A DNA stretch of 27,306 bases. Source: a virus. Lineage: Duplodnaviria; Heunggongvirae; Uroviricota; Caudoviricetes. Numbering within the stretch: the stretch's first letter is position 1; each line of letters begins with the position of its first letter. Below are positions 2,676 to 8,094 of this stretch, piece by piece. The notes under the pieces were generated by a model, which was not told the DNA's origin, did no database searches, and saw nothing but the letters and a program-made list of their open reading frames with translations. The translations under genes were made by a program, and so were the position numbers. The stretch lies in the IMG/VR virus record IMGVR_UViG_3300000301_000054, one strand, 5' to 3'.

Positions 2676-4709
2676 TTACTTAACTTGGTGGCCTGGTTTA
2701 GCACCAGCATCCGGGCTTAACAGGAAGATATCTTTTCCGCCAGGGCCAGCAGCCATCACCATGCCTTCAGAGATACCGAAGCGCATTTTACGCGGAGCCA
2801 GGTTAGCCACCATAATTGTGTGACGACCAATCAGTGCCTGTGGGTCTGGATAAGCAGAACGGATGCCTGAGAAGACATTACGCTTTTCACCACCGAGATC
2901 CAGTGTCAGGCGCAACAGTTTGTCAGAACCTTCAACAAACTCCGCGTTTTCAATCAGCGCCACGCGCAGGTCAACTTTGGCGAAGTCATCAAAGGTGATG
3001 GTTTCCTGAATCGGATCGTCTGCCAGCGGGCCAGTAACTGGCGCGGCAGTGGCTTTCACTTCTTCTTTAGAGGCTTCCACCAGTGCTTCAACCTGCTTCA
3101 TGTCGATGCGGTTATACAGTGCTTTGAACGGATTAACTTTGTGCGCCAGCAGCGGTTGCTGGATGCCATCCCAGGTCAGTTCCGTATTGAGGAATGCTTC
3201 TGCACGCTCGGTCAGTTTCGGCAGTACCGGTTTCAGGTACGTCATCAGTACGCGGAACAGGTTAATGCCCATTGAGCAAATCGCCTGCAGGTCGGCATCG
3301 CGACCTTCCTGTTTCGCCACCACCCACGGAGCCTGTTCATCGACATAGCGGTTAGCCAGGTCAGCCAATGCCATGATTTCACGGATAGCTTTACCAAATT
3401 CACGGCTTTCCCATGCTTCGCCAATCACTTCAGCGGCATCAGTAAAGGTTTTGTACAGTTGCGGGTCAGCCAGTTCGCTTGCCAGCACGCCGTCAAAACG
3501 CTTGTTGATAAAGCCTGCATTACGGGAGGCCAGGTTAACCACTTTGTTCACGATATCGGCATTCACGCGCTGAACGAAATCCTCCAGGTTGAGATCGATA
3601 TCATCAATGCGCGAAGAGAGTTTCGCAGTGTAGTAGTAACGCAGGCTGTCAGCGTCAAAATGATTCAGCCAGGTGCTGGCTTTAATAAAGGTGCCGCGAG
3701 ACTTGGACATCTTCGCGCCGTTCACCGTCACATAGCCGTGAACAAACAGGTTGGTCGGCTTGCGGAAGTTGCTGCCTTCCAGCATGGCAGGCCAGAACAG
3801 GCTGTGGAAGTAAACAATATCTTTACCGATGAAGTGGTACAGCTCGGCGGTGGAGTCTTTCTTCCAGTATTCATCGAAGCTGGTGGTATCGCCGCGCTTG
3901 TCGCACAGATTCTTGAAAGAACCCATGTAGCCAATCGGTGCGTCCAGCCAGACGTAGAAGTATTTGCCTGGTGCGTTCGGAATTTCAAAACCGAAGTAAG
4001 GCGCATCGCGGGAGATATCCCACTGTTGCAGGCCGGATTCAAACCACTCCTGCATTTTGTTTGCCACCTGCTCCTGCAACGCGCCGCTGCGGGTCCATGC
4101 CTGCAACATTTCGCTGAAAGAAGGCAGATCAAAGAAGAAGTGTTCGGAATCACGCATTACCGGGGTAGCGCCAGAAACCACCGATTTCGGCTCGATCAAT
4201 TCAGTCGGGCTATATGTTGCGCCGCAGACTTCACAGTTATCGCCGTATTGATCTGGCGCTTTACATTTCGGGCAGGTGCCTTTTACAAAACGATCCGGCA
4301 GGAACATGCCTTTTTCCGGGTCGTACAACTGAGAGATAGTGCGGTTTTTAATAAAACCGTTCTCTTTCAGGCGAGTATAGATAAGCTCAGACAACTGACG
4401 GTTCTCTTCGCTGTGCGTCGAGTGATAGTTGTCATAGCTGATGTTAAAGCCTGCGAAATCAGTCTGGTGTTCCTGACTCATTTCGCCAATCATCTGCTCC
4501 GGTGTGATACCAAGCTGCTGTGCTTTCAGCATGATCGGCGTACCGTGGGCATCGTCGGCACAGATGAAATTAACCTCGTGGCCGCGCATTCGCTGGTAAC
4601 GAACCCAGACATCAGCCTGGATGTGCTCCAGCATATGGCCGAGGTGGATTGAGCCGTTAGCGTACGGCAGCGCGCACGTCACCAGAATTTTCTTCGCGAC
4701 TTGGGTCAT
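2676..4709 (-). CDS. metG: Methionine--tRNA ligase (677 aa)
   Basis: Translation from [29 protein letters not shown] (class I HIGH motif), KMSKS present, C-terminal tRNA-binding domain; near-identical to enterobacterial MetG as recalled. The ORF-track start at 4838 is a 43-codon upstream extension; ATG at 4707..4709 chosen. Confidence 0.95.
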
Positions 4710-4866
4710 AGTAGGCATTACTTCTTTGTAGTGAAAAGGGGCTTGATAGTAACAAAATGGCCTTATGTCTGCCATGTGATAACAGCATTTCTCATAAATG
4801 ATTAAATGTCGTAGCTGGAGTACACTACAAGGCGACAATTGCGCAAATTAAAATAAAGGAGACGGG

Positions 4867-6126
4867 ATGAGCGAGTCCAAATCGCCGGATGCCCTGAGAG
4901 CAATGGTAGCCGGTACGCTGGCTAATTTTCAGCACCCAACCCTGAAACACAACCTGACTACGCTTAAAGCGTTACACCATGTTGCGTTGATGGATGACAC
5001 ACTGCATGTCGAACTAATCATGCCTTTCGTGTGGAATAAGCCTTTTGAAGACCTGAAAGAGCAATGTAGTGGTGATCTGCTCCGTATCACTGGCGCAAAG
5101 GCTATTGACTGGAAGCTGTCGTACAACATTGCCACGCTTAAGCGCGTCAAAAACCAACCAGGCATTAATGGCGTTAAGAACATTATCGCCGTCAGCTCAG
5201 GCAAGGGCGGCGTGGGTAAATCCTCCACAGCGGTAAACCTGGCACTGGCTTTGGCTGCTGAAGGTGCGAAAGTTGGTATTTTGGATGCCGATATCTACGG
5301 GCCATCAATTCCAACCATGCTTGGNNNNNNNNNNNNNNNNNNNNNNNNNNNNNNNNNNNNNNNNNNNNNNNNNNNNNNNNNNNNNNNNNNNNNNNNNNNN
5401 NNNNNNNNNNNNNNNNNNNNNNNNNNCAACTTCACCGGACGGTACTCACATGGCACCGATTATGTCTCATGGCCTGGCAACCAATTCAATTGGTTATCTG
5501 GTCACTGACGACAATGCGATGGTGTGGCGTGGACCGATGGCCAGCAAGGCGCTGATGCAGATGTTGCAGGAAACACTGTGGCCTGATCTGGACTATCTCG
5601 TTCTCGATATGCCGCCGGGCACTGGTGATATTCAGTTGACGNNNNNNNNNNNNNNNNNNNNNNNNNNNNNNNNNNNNNNNNNNNNNNNNNNNNNNNNNNN
5701 NNNNNNNNNNNNNNNNNNNNNNNNNNNNNNNNNNNNNNNNNNNNNNNNNNNNNNNNNNNNNNNNNNNNCATCGCGCTGATCGATGCGAAGAAAGGCATTG
5801 TGATGTTCGAAAAAGTCGAAGTGCCGGTACTAGGTATCGTCGAAAACATGAGTGTGCATATTTGCAGTAACTGCGGTCATCACGAGCCAATTTTTGGCAC
5901 CGGTGGCGCACAGAAACTGGCCGAGAAATACAACACGCAGTTGTTAGGCCAAATGCCTCTTCATATCTCTCTTCGTGAAGATCTGGATAACGGAACACCA
6001 ACCGTTATTAGTCGTCCAGATAGCGAATTTACGGCTATTTATCGTGACCTCGCAGATCGCGTTGCTGCCCAAATGTATTGGCAAGGTGAAGTAATACCTG
6101 GCGAAATCGCATTCCGCGCAGTGTGA
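4867..6126 (+). CDS. apbC: Fe-S cluster carrier ATPase ApbC/Mrp (interrupted by N runs 5325..5426 and 5642..5768)
   Basis: Three segments read [16 protein letters not shown]...[21 protein letters not shown] (deviant Walker A), [15 protein letters not shown]...[12 protein letters not shown], and ...[16 protein letters not shown]...EIAFRAV; segments fall in different frames only because of the N runs. Confidence 0.9.
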
Positions 6127-6132
6127 TAAAAA

Positions 6133-6151
6133 GGCGGTGCAATGCACCGCC
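6133..6151. terminator. Hairpin GGCGGTGC-AAT-GCACCGCC between convergent apbC and the UmuD'-like gene; U-tract on the minus-strand side
   Basis: Perfect 8-bp GC-rich stem; flanked by AAAAA on plus (TTTTT on the minus transcript). Confidence 0.6.
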
Positions 6152-6163
6152 TAATCAGTTCTC

Positions 6164-6626
6164 CTACATCACGGGACAATCATCAAACTCGCCACTTCTT
6201 GCGTCGTTGATAATGTGAGTGATCACACCAAACACGGCATTGCTGCCCGTGCATCCATCGTCATCCTTTGGCAATGCTTCCTTCTTACCGGTTCTTAAAT
6301 CCTCCAGATGCTGACGTGGGTACTTCCGGTATCTTTTTNNNNNNNNNNNNNNNNNNNNNNNNNNNNNNNNNNNNNNNNNNNNNNNNNNNNNNNNNNNNNN
6401 NNNNNNNNNNNNNGCGATATTCCCCATCCAGAGCGCATACAAGCAGAGAACCATCAACCGGGGTAAGTGAGGAATCGACCACCAGCAATGCACCCTGTAA
6501 TATTCCCTCACGATGATGACTATCAGCTGCCCTCATGAAGTAGGTCGCTGAAGGATGTCTAATTATCTGCTGATCAAGAGAAATACGGCTCTCAGCATAA
6601 TCCGCCGCAGGAGAAGGGAAGCCCAT
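6164..6626 (-). CDS. UmuD'-like S24-peptidase-domain protein, N-terminally truncated at the position of the UmuD cleavage site (interrupted by N run 6339..6413)
   Basis: Starts MGFPSPAADYAESRISLDQQIIRHPSATYF...LLVVDSSLTPVDGSLLVCALDGEY, aligning to UmuD from Gly25 onward; C-terminal segment ...AVFGVITHIINDA matches the UmuD C-terminus; SD AAGAGG upstream. Confidence 0.7.
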
Positions 6627-6641
6627 AATACTCGCCTCTTA

Positions 6642-6661
6642 ATACTGTATATACATACAGT
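6642..6661 (-). promoter_or_regulatory. LexA (SOS) box TACTGTATATACATACAGTA overlapping a sigma70-like promoter (TTCAAA-17-TATACT) for the UmuD'-like gene
   Basis: CTGT-N8-ACAG palindrome matching the LexA consensus; 16-35 nt upstream of the ATG at 6626. Confidence 0.7.
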
Positions 6662-6962
6662 ATATGTTGAAGCTATATATTTTTGAACTCTATCTCTTAA
6701 AAAAAGATGTTAATAAGATGCTAACTATTGAAAGGCATAAATATATACAATTCCAACAAACGTTATTTTTAACAAATTTTTTCTCTCTGTTGACTTTTGC
6801 GAAAGCCTTGTCTGGCCTAAATTGCGCGGAAGCTACTTTTTCCTTCCTGAGTTATCCACAGAGTTATGCACTTGCATGCATAACCTATACACACTATCTT
6901 AATTCGCAAGACACTGATGTTGCGGTATTGAAGGTTCATTGGGTTAAAAATAGACATTAAAA

Positions 6963-6990
6963 AGCCCAGTTGACTAGGCTGGGCTTTTTA
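6963..6990. terminator. Rho-independent terminator hairpin AGCCCAG...CTGGGCT flanked by A-run and T-run (bidirectional)
   Basis: 7-bp stem, about 8-nt loop, TTTTT at 6986..6990 and AAAA upstream. Confidence 0.7.
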
Positions 6991-7026
6991 AAAGGAAACA
7001 GAGTTTGCGGCTCTGTTCCTGAGCCA

Positions 7027-7215
7027 TAAGTATCTGGCGACTGAATTAAGATTAACCGAATGTACTGGATTCATCAAGAAACGTTGAGTGGTCATACCAG
7101 GTAATAATGACCATTTACTAAACATCGTTGTTCTCAAAGAAGATTTAAGTCCAGGTTTTTGGTGACTCTAAAACCTTACCTTAACTCGAAATCGTGCCGT
7201 AAGTATCTGGCGACT
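7027..7215. repeat. 16-bp perfect direct repeat TAAGTATCTGGCGACT (7027..7042 and 7200..7215); second short repeat AAATCGTGCCG (7188..7198 and 7310..7320)
   Basis: Read directly; located in the non-coding junction between the UmuD'-like gene and the phage-type gene run. Confidence 0.7.
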
Positions 7216-7289
7216 ACAGATATTGCAACTGCAAAGGCAAGCCCAAAGGTATTTGCAGCTAGGCGCGATAAAACTAAGTGAGGCCTGTT

Positions 7290-7373
7290 ATGGTTAACTT
7301 ACTGTTCAAAATCGTGCCGCCGATGTTCGCGATTATCAAAGCGATCATTGAGTACGTAAACCAGCGTCCATAA
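7290..7373 (+). CDS. Candidate 27-aa hydrophobic peptide MVNLLFKIVPPMFAIIKAIIEYVNQRP
   Basis: GTGAGG SD 6-7 nt upstream of ATG; followed by terminator hairpin 7387..7411 and a T-run; not in the ORF track because it is under 60 aa. Confidence 0.3.
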   Translation: MVNLLFKIVPPMFAIIKAIIEYVNQRP

Positions 7374-7386
7374 CGCTAGTTGCTAC

Positions 7387-7411
7387 AGGCCCCATCAAGA
7401 GCATGGGGCCT
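7387..7411 (+). terminator. Hairpin AGGCCCCAT-CAAGAGC-ATGGGGCCT followed by a T-rich tract
   Basis: Perfect 9-bp stem; T-rich downstream on plus strand. Confidence 0.55.
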
Positions 7412-7428
7412 CTTTATCGTACTATTGC

Positions 7429-8094
7429 TTATTTTTTACGGACTGAGTTGTTCACTGCTCTGGCAATCTTCTCCCGCAATTGCTGCGTTCCGTGGTACTG
7501 AACCGCAATATCTCTCAACTCGTTCACCAGTTCTCGAATCTGGTGATCTTTAAGCTCATTATTTGGGTGATTGGTAACAACTCTGGTTAATTCACCCTTG
7601 TCTTTTGCTCTTACGTATGCAGCTCTTGTGCATTCGACCCATGTATTACCGCCTACATTAACTTCGTAGATTAGGCTGGACTTATCTGTCAATTCGGAAC
7701 AAATACGGGCCGTGGTCTGGCAACTAGAGCATTCGCAGTTATCGCGGAAACCGTGGTCTACTGGCTTCGGTTTCACATCATCAACTTTTTCTACCCTATC
7801 GGAATTTAAATACTTCGAAGCCTTGCTATGCCAATCGCTGGTTTTAGGATCTTGTCCATCCATCAAACGCCAGGCTTCAGCGATTAACTCATAACTAGTG
7901 ACTGTAGCTTCCTGCGCATCACCAATAAGTCGTGTAATCTCTCTTTCAAGCCGACCGCCTAACTCCGTTTTAGTGCAATGTTCTGACCAATCGCCAGCCT
8001 CAAGAAGCGCGAGAATGCTTAAAATATCGTCCAATAGAACGGTAGTATTATCGACTTCCTTCTGAAACTCACCGGCTACTGATTTATGCATCAT
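7429..8094 (-). CDS. Hypothetical phage-type protein (221 aa), last gene of the minus-strand run
   Basis: Start overlaps the stop of the upstream gene by 4 nt; Cys cluster CECSSC. Confidence 0.55.
   Translation of the reverse strand: MMHKSVAGEFQKEVDNTTVLLDDILSILALLEAGDWSEHCTKTELGGRLEREITRLIGDAQEATVTSYELIAEAWRLMDGQDPKTSDWHSKASKYLNSDRVEKVDDVKPKPVDHGFRDNCECSSCQTTARICSELTDKSSLIYEVNVGGNTWVECTRAAYVRAKDKGELTRVVTNHPNNELKDHQIRELVNELRDIAVQYHGTQQLREKIARAVNNSVRKK

Follow-up and report, generated by a model that had tools for sequence, protein, structure and literature searches.

A putative dinQ/agrB-like type I toxin-antitoxin module in an unannotated region of an SSU5-like phage-plasmid

Analysis of the 27,306-nt viral sequence IMGVR_UViG_3300000301_000054 (hereafter the window) revealed a compact locus at positions 6957-7418 that is probably a type I toxin-antitoxin (TA) module of the dinQ/agrB kind, carried on an SSU5-like phage-plasmid. 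It pairs a predicted minus-strand small RNA (sRNA) with a plus-strand open reading frame (ORF) for a 27-aa peptide; the features are collected in Table 1. The genes on either side are humD (6285-6626, minus strand; S24 peptidase / HumD) and one for a hypothetical protein of 221 aa (7429-8094, minus strand), and the 800 bp separating these genes are annotation-free in every public record examined. This region (6627-7428) shows 100% identity to the E. coli plasmid pW170_1 and 99.8% identity to the SSU5-like phage-plasmid Cyrano (= pLF82). Repeats, a conserved sRNA promoter and terminator, co-variation of the two repeats R1 and R2, RNA structure on the strands given in Table 1, a coding ORF under constraint and similarity to AgrA/AgrB were all established here by computation. 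The two transcripts, toxicity of the peptide, the mode of its repression and a role in addiction are predicted.

The initial annotation of the region had drawn attention to a 16-bp direct repeat and had suggested either an integration or recombination scar or a small toxin or sRNA locus. The 16-mer TAAGTATCTGGCGACT indeed has exactly two copies in the window (7027-7042 and 7200-7215), with none expected from 100 shuffles. Allowing one A/G mismatch lengthens it to 20 nt; the resulting repeats, R1 and R2, are 173 bp apart and enclose 153 bp. Distant blastn matches (68-83% identity) were found in Citrobacter and Enterobacter plasmids and covered only the module. Additional loci were located by an anchor scan with an invariant leader hairpin (AACTGCAAAGG-N12-16-TTTGCAGC), which was chosen to be independent of the repeats. 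Together with the loci fetched before, this yielded 29 distinct real loci, which fell into 18 lineages (L numbers below). Both repeats were present in every lineage, 152-177 nt apart, and changed together in elements of Escherichia, Citrobacter, Enterobacter, Kluyvera and Klebsiella. At least five repeat variants were distinguished: TAAGTATCTGGCGAC in the window's clade, AATGTATCTGGCGAC in most lineages, ..ATCCGG.. in L008, ..GGCAGC in L007 and L039, GTAAAACACTGGCGAC in L061 and GTTGTTAACCGGCGAC in L112 (in short form TAAGTATCTGG, AATGTATCTGG, ..CCGG.., ..GGCAGC, GTAAAACACTGG and GTTGTTAACCGG).

These joint changes were analyzed in 12 distinct lineages by pairing R2, read as plus-strand RNA, with R1, read as minus-strand RNA. 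This duplex was 97.8% paired, and 10 of its 23 pairs had changed on both sides, which none of 500 shuffles reached; registers slid by 1-3 columns were only 29-36% paired. All 11 one-sided differences in the core gave G·U or U·G pairs when R2 was placed in the mRNA and R1 in the sRNA, and the same differences in the opposite orientation were A·C mismatches. Since all of them wobble in one orientation, RNA pairing with this strand assignment is favoured, and simple homogenisation of the repeats and protein-binding sites are both argued against. The type I class with non-overlapping sRNA, as delimited by the criteria of T1TAdb (PMC8594479), involves at least 15 nt of sRNA-mRNA complementarity; here the complementarity kept by co-variation comes to 20 bp in the window, one of them a G·U, and to 23-24 bp in most relatives. 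Across the window, no site other than the sRNA's own template formed a better duplex with the sRNA seed than R2 (-38.5 kcal/mol against -26.8 or weaker elsewhere). This comparison comes from a seed-limited scan; RNAduplex with the full-length sRNA was uninformative, because shuffles scored nearly as well. The existence of two direct repeats would be explained by the match of the sRNA to its site in the leader.

The possibility that the repeats are att cores, left by recombination at the edge of the phage gene block, was considered against the same data. Apart from the two direct repeats themselves, it could draw on the composite stretch 7186-7215, which resembles parts of two other places, and on the position of the region between a humD block shared with P1 and genes not found in P1. 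However, the repeats enclose only promoters and no mobile-element genes, one of them ends at the +1 of a conserved promoter, their mismatches are strand-specific wobbles, and the pair recurs with matched changes in unrelated flanks and hosts. Comparison with an empty site, proposed initially as a check, met no single-copy sites in the relatives examined; the repeats were always paired at the spacing given above, in differing contexts. An att origin is therefore exceedingly improbable. We also regard it as very improbable that the repeats are iteron- or operator-like sites for a protein acting on DNA, perhaps tied to the nearby DnaA boxes. Such boxes lie 150 bp leftward and recur beside the module in several lineages, and direct repeats at fixed spacing are typical of iterons. 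Yet there are two copies only, one of which stands exactly at the start of a promoter-to-terminator unit resembling AgrB; the differences between copies are all transitions in the wobble-compatible direction, and the flanking helices co-vary as RNA on defined strands.

The promoter-to-terminator unit that starts at R1 is strongly conserved. A promoter of the form TTGA[AT]G-17-TAA[GT][CA]T was found in 18 out of 18 lineages, in the same place, with no indels and scores of 10.1-11.7 bits, and the TCAA and TTAA columns of its alignment were invariant. In all 18 lineages 6 nt separate the -10 element from the end of the repeat, and R1 ends exactly at the predicted +1. The first of two terminators noted initially proved to be the minus-strand terminator of this unit. 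In the window its hairpin is symmetric (A5...T5), so it could also stop plus-strand transcription arriving from the left; the relatives keep the T-run on the minus-strand side only (GAAAAAGCCC... / ...GGGCCTTTCAAT). The 86-nt sRNA folds with -34 kcal/mol (z = -5.5), and its consensus fold contains compensatory pairs in both the internal stem-loop and the terminator. In silico the unit (7077-6957) is divergent from the predicted toxin mRNA, does not overlap it and lies about 110 nt from its predicted 5′ end at 7153; sRNA genes of the class are expected on the opposite strand no more than ~300-500 nt upstream.

No known RNA family was detected when the whole window was compared with Rfam at Rfam's own thresholds. 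In a permissive scan, AgrB (RF02891) was the best minus-strand match, aligning over the full model at 7037-6956 with 27.6 bits (E 0.017), which falls short of the 40-bit gathering threshold. DinQ, an SOS-induced type I toxin of E. coli K-12, has AgrB as its antitoxin (PMC3567139, PMC5066626). The motif AGAGCCxCxAACUC in the internal stem-loop is common to the sRNA and the AgrB consensus. The RF02891 model is narrow, as the validated agrB of pOXA-48 does not come within E<=1 of it. A covariance model built solely from the present family (model R1) scored pOXA-48 agrB at 22.6 bits and E. coli agrA and agrB at 19.6 and 19.5 bits. These were the best non-family matches in 89 kb, all on the right strand and either on the annotated genes or at most 7 nt from their ends, with rough E values of 1e-3 to 6e-3.

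The sRNA model also scored 25.7 bits on the opposite strand, at 6900-6996 (+). An RNA from this segment would share the bidirectional terminator; its 5′ part, UUCGCAAGACACUGAUG, is similar to the seed of the sRNA, GUCGCCAGAUACUUAUG. The DnaA boxes are adjoined by a weak promoter (TTGCAT 6872-6877 / TATCTT 6895-6900). The segment is invariant within the window's clade and absent elsewhere, and no target for its RNA was found within the window. It may be a degenerate AgrA-like paralogue, or a chance match aided by the shared terminator.

The 27-codon ORF reported initially was confirmed at 7290-7373 including the stop, with ATG at 7290 and a Shine-Dalgarno (SD) sequence GAGG at 7280-7283, as was the plus-strand terminator at 7387-7411, which has 9 pairs. 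With its own SD and terminator, the ORF has the form of the small (<60 aa) hydrophobic peptide genes of the class. The consensus of the peptide is MVNLLFKIVPPxVxIIxAIIEYVNQRP. It is under purifying selection (pN/pS 0.06-0.63, mostly 0.06-0.3), and M1, L4, K7, P10, I15, Y22 and N24 are invariant among 11 distinct homologues. A second peptide type (MLLLFLKLAHPVAVIIMTLLGYWKDR, type B) is a paralogue of the first, type A (hhalign probability 87%), and replaces it in some lineages (L005 and L008 have type B only). In L006, L081, L007, L039 and L112 type B is followed in tandem by type A; both have an SD of their own and share a single leader with a single sRNA target. To our knowledge, bicistronic type I toxins are unusual. 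Searches of Pfam and NCBIfam with both peptide types gave no match, and the peptide motifs were not found in a literature search. The only named form in the protein collection is N-terminally extended to 31 aa and is called 'hypothetical protein' in one viral metagenome-assembled genome.

Upstream of the ORF we found a structured leader. A strong sigma-70 promoter for the toxin mRNA was not detected, either in a promoter scan at 9/12 matches or in a position weight matrix scan. The candidate promoter in Table 1 is weak; in most lineages a weak -10 element ends 3-8 nt before the 5′ hairpin. A P1 late promoter (Lpa box AAGTTACTT) upstream of the toxin was considered and set aside, as by eye it is not conserved in the window. 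CTGT-N8-ACAG occurs in perfect form just once in the window, as the humD box at 6645-6660, and 7043-7152 contains no LexA box. The helices of the plus-strand leader persist across G-C to A-U and wobble changes. In the 5′ stem-loop, U-A to U-G changes occur that fit an RNA on the plus strand only. The hairpin that presents R2 has been rebuilt from other sequences elsewhere (CACUG/CAGUG in L061, GUUAAC/GUUAAC in L112). The CUGCAAA hairpin never varies and is therefore uninformative on structure, for or against. A GC-rich hairpin with a T-run follows the last small ORF in the lineages that align there.

A second, 11-bp repeat is also real: AAATCGTGCCG occurs at 7189-7199 and 7309-7319 (14 nt with one mismatch). 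By itself it is within chance, since at least two matches were seen in 11 of 100 shuffles. A short LEIVP-stop reading had been interpreted initially as a partial duplication of the end of the ORF. The LEIVP-stop exists, at 7185-7202, one base away from where it was first placed. It corresponds to codons 6-10 (FKIVP), near the start of the ORF and not its end, and is a stretch of only five codons that follows a stop. Nor is the upstream copy of the 11-mer a duplication scar; it is a conserved element of the 5′ untranslated region (UTR) which pairs with 7262-7269. RNAalifold placed this helix (49-55/119-126) between element U (7191-7198) and element M (7262-7269), and it also forms when the 5′ UTR is folded alone; it encloses the R2 hairpin and the invariant CUGCAAA hairpin. 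The upstream and ORF copies of the 11-mer are identical only in the window's own clade, and the relatives differ synonymously at this place. In the window, constrained folds with U:M or with M:D (element D being the ORF copy) are nearly isoenergetic (-81.5 vs -84.1 kcal/mol), and blocking R2 favours M:D. A switch of this kind, in which M:D would lengthen a hairpin containing the SD and so sequester it, was rejected as the general mechanism because D differs in other clades and blocking R2 leaves the predicted accessibility of the ribosome-binding site (RBS) as it was in 16 of 18 lineages; we retain it as a possibility specific to the window's clade.

Table 1. Predicted features of the module and of the adjoining sequence (positions in the window).
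Feature	Position	Strand	Remarks
Predicted antitoxin sRNA, ~86 nt, AgrB-like	6957-7042	-	5′ single-stranded target-recognition end, internal stem-loop, intrinsic terminator
sRNA promoter	7049-7077	-	-35 TTGATG (7077-7072), 17-nt spacer, -10 TAATCT (7054-7049), predicted +1 A at 7042
sRNA terminator hairpin	6957-6991	-	13-nt arms, 100% complementary; A-run before, T-run after
sRNA internal stem-loop GGAACAGAGCCGCAAACUCUGUUUCC	6993-7020	-	Pairs 27/51 and 32/46 kept via both-sided changes
R1	7023-7042	-	5′ end (seed) of predicted sRNA; reverse complement pairs with R2
Candidate toxin-mRNA promoter, weak	7114-7144	+	TTTACT-19-GAAGAT; uncertain; 3.6 bits in window
5′-terminal stem-loop AGGUUUU...AAAACCU	7153-7176	+	Pair 10/33: AU in 6 sequences, GC in 6, GU in 3
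Element U (AAATCGTGCCG), upstream 11-nt copy	7189-7199	+	Pairs with M, overlaps sRNA target
R2	7196-7215	+	Predicted sRNA binding site in 5′ UTR, 75-94 nt upstream of start codon
R2 local hairpin	7202-7224	+	GGCGACU of R2 presented in loop
Hairpin CUGCAAA...UUUGCAG in 5′ UTR	7229-7258	+	Invariant in 15 sequences; search anchor
Element M (GGCGCGAU)	7262-7269	+	Partner of U; alternatively of D, window's clade only
Shine-Dalgarno GAGG	7280-7283	+	6 nt before ATG; conserved in most lineages
Toxin candidate ORF, 27 aa, MVNLLFKIVPPMFAIIKAIIEYVNQRP	7290-7373	+	Own SD, terminator
Element D, ORF copy of 11-nt repeat, codons 7-10	7309-7319	+	Exact identity in window's clade only
Toxin-mRNA intrinsic terminator	7387-7418 (predicted terminator 7387-7411)	+	9 pairs; GC-rich hairpin and T-run in lineages that align there
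humD promoter TTCAAA-17-TATACT and LexA box TACTGTATATACATACAGTA (6643-6662, near-consensus)	6643-6687	-	Outside module; same arrangement annotated in P1, P7
AT-rich stretch homologous to P1/P7 upfN-upfO/LPhot	6753-6876		Outside module; DnaA boxes 6852-6860 TTATCCACA, 6864-6872 TTATGCACT

The features described suggest the following mode of action. The minus-strand promoter would give rise to an sRNA of about 86 nt, running from 7042 to the terminator at 6991-6957, whose first 20 nt are the reverse complement of R1. A weakly promoted plus-strand mRNA (approximately 7153-7418) would carry the 5′ stem-loop, a leader of about 138 nt, the ORF for the hydrophobic peptide and the terminator at 7387-7411. 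Its leader is predicted to present R2 in a hairpin within a multiloop closed by U:M. Pairing of the 5′ end of the sRNA with R2 would then prevent synthesis of the peptide. As 75-94 nt separate the target from the start codon downstream, which places it far from the RBS, repression would be indirect, through loss of a standby site, processing or cleavage; the likeliest routes would be duplex-directed cleavage or decay and/or loss of the leader conformation or standby site used for ribosome loading. AgrB acts on dinQ, and IstR-1 on tisB, in this manner. Provided that the sRNA is the unstable partner, cells that lose the phage-plasmid would go on to translate the toxin, resulting in post-segregational killing (addiction).

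As we read it, the module works like dinQ/agrB and probably shares the ancestry of its antitoxin. In the dinQ locus of E. coli K-12 direct repeats are present in agrB, agrA and the dinQ leader, and the sRNAs are divergent from the toxin gene. In both systems the sRNA and the toxin mRNA are divergent and do not overlap, the mRNA leader is long and structured, the peptide is 27 aa long, and the sRNA has a three-part build with AGAGCC.C.AACUC. Unlike SOS-regulated dinQ, the module is without a LexA box at the toxin promoter, is found on phage-plasmids and plasmids and not on the chromosome, and has a single functional-looking sRNA copy. The dqlB/agrB pair of pOXA-48 has been demonstrated experimentally to consist of a toxin and a base-pairing sRNA antitoxin and to act as an addiction module, and its 35-nt complementarity between sRNA and leader was tested by compensatory mutations (PMC12365149). 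It resembles the module in being plasmid-borne and usually unannotated, in gene order, in the layout of terminator, sRNA and promoter, and in having direct repeats in leader and sRNA; the N-terminus of DqlB, MINLL, resembles MVNLL of the present peptide. In contrast to dqlB, some relatives of the module carry two tandem toxin ORFs.

At the level of the toxin there is no match to these systems. Searches with NCBIfam models DinQ NF041472 and DqlB NF041473 gave no match at E<=10 for the window peptide with either start or for the peptides of three relatives (types A and B); the controls scored 54 bits (DinQ) and 73.5 bits (DqlB). Alignment with hhalign to DqlB had a probability of 24% and was confined to the N-terminal 19 residues, and no alignment to DinQ was obtained. 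No similarity to the dinQ and dqlB leaders was found either with a family-leader nhmmer profile (--max) or by short-word blastn, which returned chance 7-8-mers. A dql gene is defined by similarity of its 5′ UTR to dinQ and by signature residues (Kristiansen et al. 2016, PMC5066626). Since leader and peptide fail to match DinQ/DqlB, the module is not a dql gene by this published definition.

Other type I systems share parts of this arrangement. In par (fst/RNA II) of pAD1, direct DNA repeats on opposite strands create RNA-RNA complementarity, and the product is a small peptide with a mid-helix Pro and a charged C-terminus. The RNAs of par are convergent and share a terminator, whereas those of the module are divergent with separate terminators; the peptide had no match to Pfam Fst or Ldr. 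The sRNAs of tisB/istR-1, zorO/orzO and shoB/ohsC are, like that of the module, located 5′ of the toxin gene and do not overlap it (PMC8594479, PMC5397157), and zor/orz also occurs as specificity variants. No sequence or Rfam similarity to these three systems was found, and their toxins are unrelated. A hok/sok-type organization was examined as well: Rfam and Pfam gave no match, an overlapping ORF of the mok type was not present, and a promoter-like site on the minus strand of the ORF is confounded by coding constraints.

This last site deserves consideration, as the true antitoxin might be a hok/sok-like cis-antisense RNA initiated from it (TTTACG-17-GATAAT, 7360-7332), or read-through from the upstream minus-strand operon, with the R1 transcript being secondary. 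With 9/12 matches it is the best sigma-70-like site in the region, and, on inspection of the sequences, its hexamers are positionally kept in the relatives; moreover, the terminator at 7387-7411 has no minus-strand T-run, so transcription from the gene at 7429-8094 could reach 6957. On the other hand, the hexamers are reverse complements of conserved Ile-Ile and Tyr-Val-Asn codons, and their conservation may reflect coding. A cis-antisense RNA needs no second copy of the repeat and leaves R1, its dedicated promoter and the R1/R2 co-variation unexplained. We consider this arrangement quite improbable; the site (7329-7360) may be an extra layer of control or a coding accident.

It is rather unlikely, in our estimate, that the RNA pair is genuine and controls a non-toxic small membrane peptide with an accessory or regulatory function, for example in superinfection exclusion or as a membrane modulator, so that no TA function or addiction is involved. 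The RNA evidence would suit any sRNA-regulated small ORF equally, no known toxin model was matched, and the hydrophobic stretch holds charged residues and Pro-Pro. The layout, however, is that of the validated dinQ/agrB and dqlB/agrB systems (divergent sRNA, long structured leader, hydrophobic peptide of 26-27 aa, terminator; PMC12365149), the sRNA resembles AgrA/B, and the module travels as one block between plasmids and phage-plasmids. That the peptide might be non-toxic is the main residual uncertainty.

Several points weigh against a type I TA module. The AgrB similarity, with 27.6 bits against a threshold of 40 in Rfam, is below the cut-off and derives in part from a terminator of generic type. 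Two Lys and Pro-Pro lie within the hydrophobic stretch of the peptide, for which no toxin family was matched. At 3.6 bits in the window, the promoter of the toxin mRNA is weak; it is also heterogeneous and not clearly conserved. Gene conversion, and not selection for RNA pairing, could in principle have made the two direct repeats co-vary. For 16 of 18 lineages, folding predicts the same accessibility of the RBS whether or not R2 is blocked. Finally, transcription, toxicity and antitoxin action of the locus are predictions from the sequence. Taking both sides together, we consider the dinQ/agrB-like TA module the likely explanation of the locus, and of the two possibilities raised initially it is the small toxin or sRNA locus that is supported, in the form of an sRNA and peptide pair with dinQ/agrB architecture.

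The distribution of the module bears on its possible role. Its flanks differ between lineages, with repA and phd in Citrobacter, IS3 in Klebsiella and humD in the window. Of the 94 plasmids that carry the peptide, 89 are both non-mobilizable and 85-125 kb in size, and neither these 94 plasmids nor about 115 complete E. coli genomes have an annotation for the locus. By analogy with the pOXA-48 precedent, and given these types of carrier element, addiction of the phage-plasmid would be the most likely role, with defence or exclusion as the alternative. A further copy of the module, outside phage-plasmids, was observed in L112 (NZ_CP143910.1, a 261-kb IncFIB conjugative plasmid of K. pneumoniae), where it stands beside an IS3 transposase gene and has the fifth seed/target variant.

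The surrounding sequence comprises three distinct parts, 6640-6690, 6753-6876 and 6957-7418, the last being a self-contained module that is absent from P1 and P7. In comparison with P1 (L003), hot and lxr, which lie between humD and the DnaA-box region, are missing in the window; P7 (L004) has other genes and IS903 at the hot/lxr spot. On these comparisons the stretch 6627-6876 appears to be a variable hotspot in P1-related and SSU5-related elements. The homologous spot in P1 is annotated with two predicted DnaA boxes. A DnaA-box motif (TTATCCACAGAGTTAT) recurs just left of the sRNA terminator in L048, L084, L085 and L099, which are otherwise differing lineages, with an inverted TGTGGATAA as its partner in L085 and L099; it could reflect control by DnaA or a hitch-hiking element. 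A palindrome of 12-16 bp, of the type CACTACATGTAGTG, is located 60-90 nt left of the sRNA terminator in most lineages that do not belong to the window's clade (CCACTACATGTAGTGG in L048 and L084, similar in L005, L006, L064 and L061); it may be an operator.

A 98-aa ORF at 6664-6960 was not counted as a gene, being of low complexity, AT-rich and nowhere annotated. The window contains 17 N-runs (for example 5325-5426, 5642-5768 and 6339-6413), none of them inside 6627-7428. These masked runs cause the breaks seen in the ORF list in several ORFs including apbC and humD, so that the fragmented apbC is an artefact and not a real disruption. At 2676-6199 the phage-plasmid carries full-length metG (methionyl-tRNA synthetase) and apbC/mrp in divergent orientation, as on the E. 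coli chromosome.

Type I TA loci escape standard annotation. It is conceivable, and we put it forward tentatively, that the module represents an undescribed family of type I toxins, with two paralogous peptides of 26-27 aa and a distant AgrB relative in at least five matched seed classes, maintained mainly on SSU5-like phage-plasmids as an addiction or exclusion device, the classes permitting co-residence without cross-neutralisation. The toxin family, the tandem two-toxin variants, the association with phage-plasmids and the natural specificity variants appear to be undescribed, and the kind of system is known. The practical gain is modest, as the principle is known from dinQ/agrB and dqlB/agrB; the five natural co-varying seed/target variants are nonetheless ready-made compensatory mutants for studying sRNA silencing about 80 nt upstream of an RBS. 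If the prediction is correct, it would extend the range of AgrB-type antitoxins beyond DinQ/Dql toxins and would add a stability or defence determinant to SSU5-like phage-plasmids, which are carriers of resistance genes in clinical Enterobacteriaceae.

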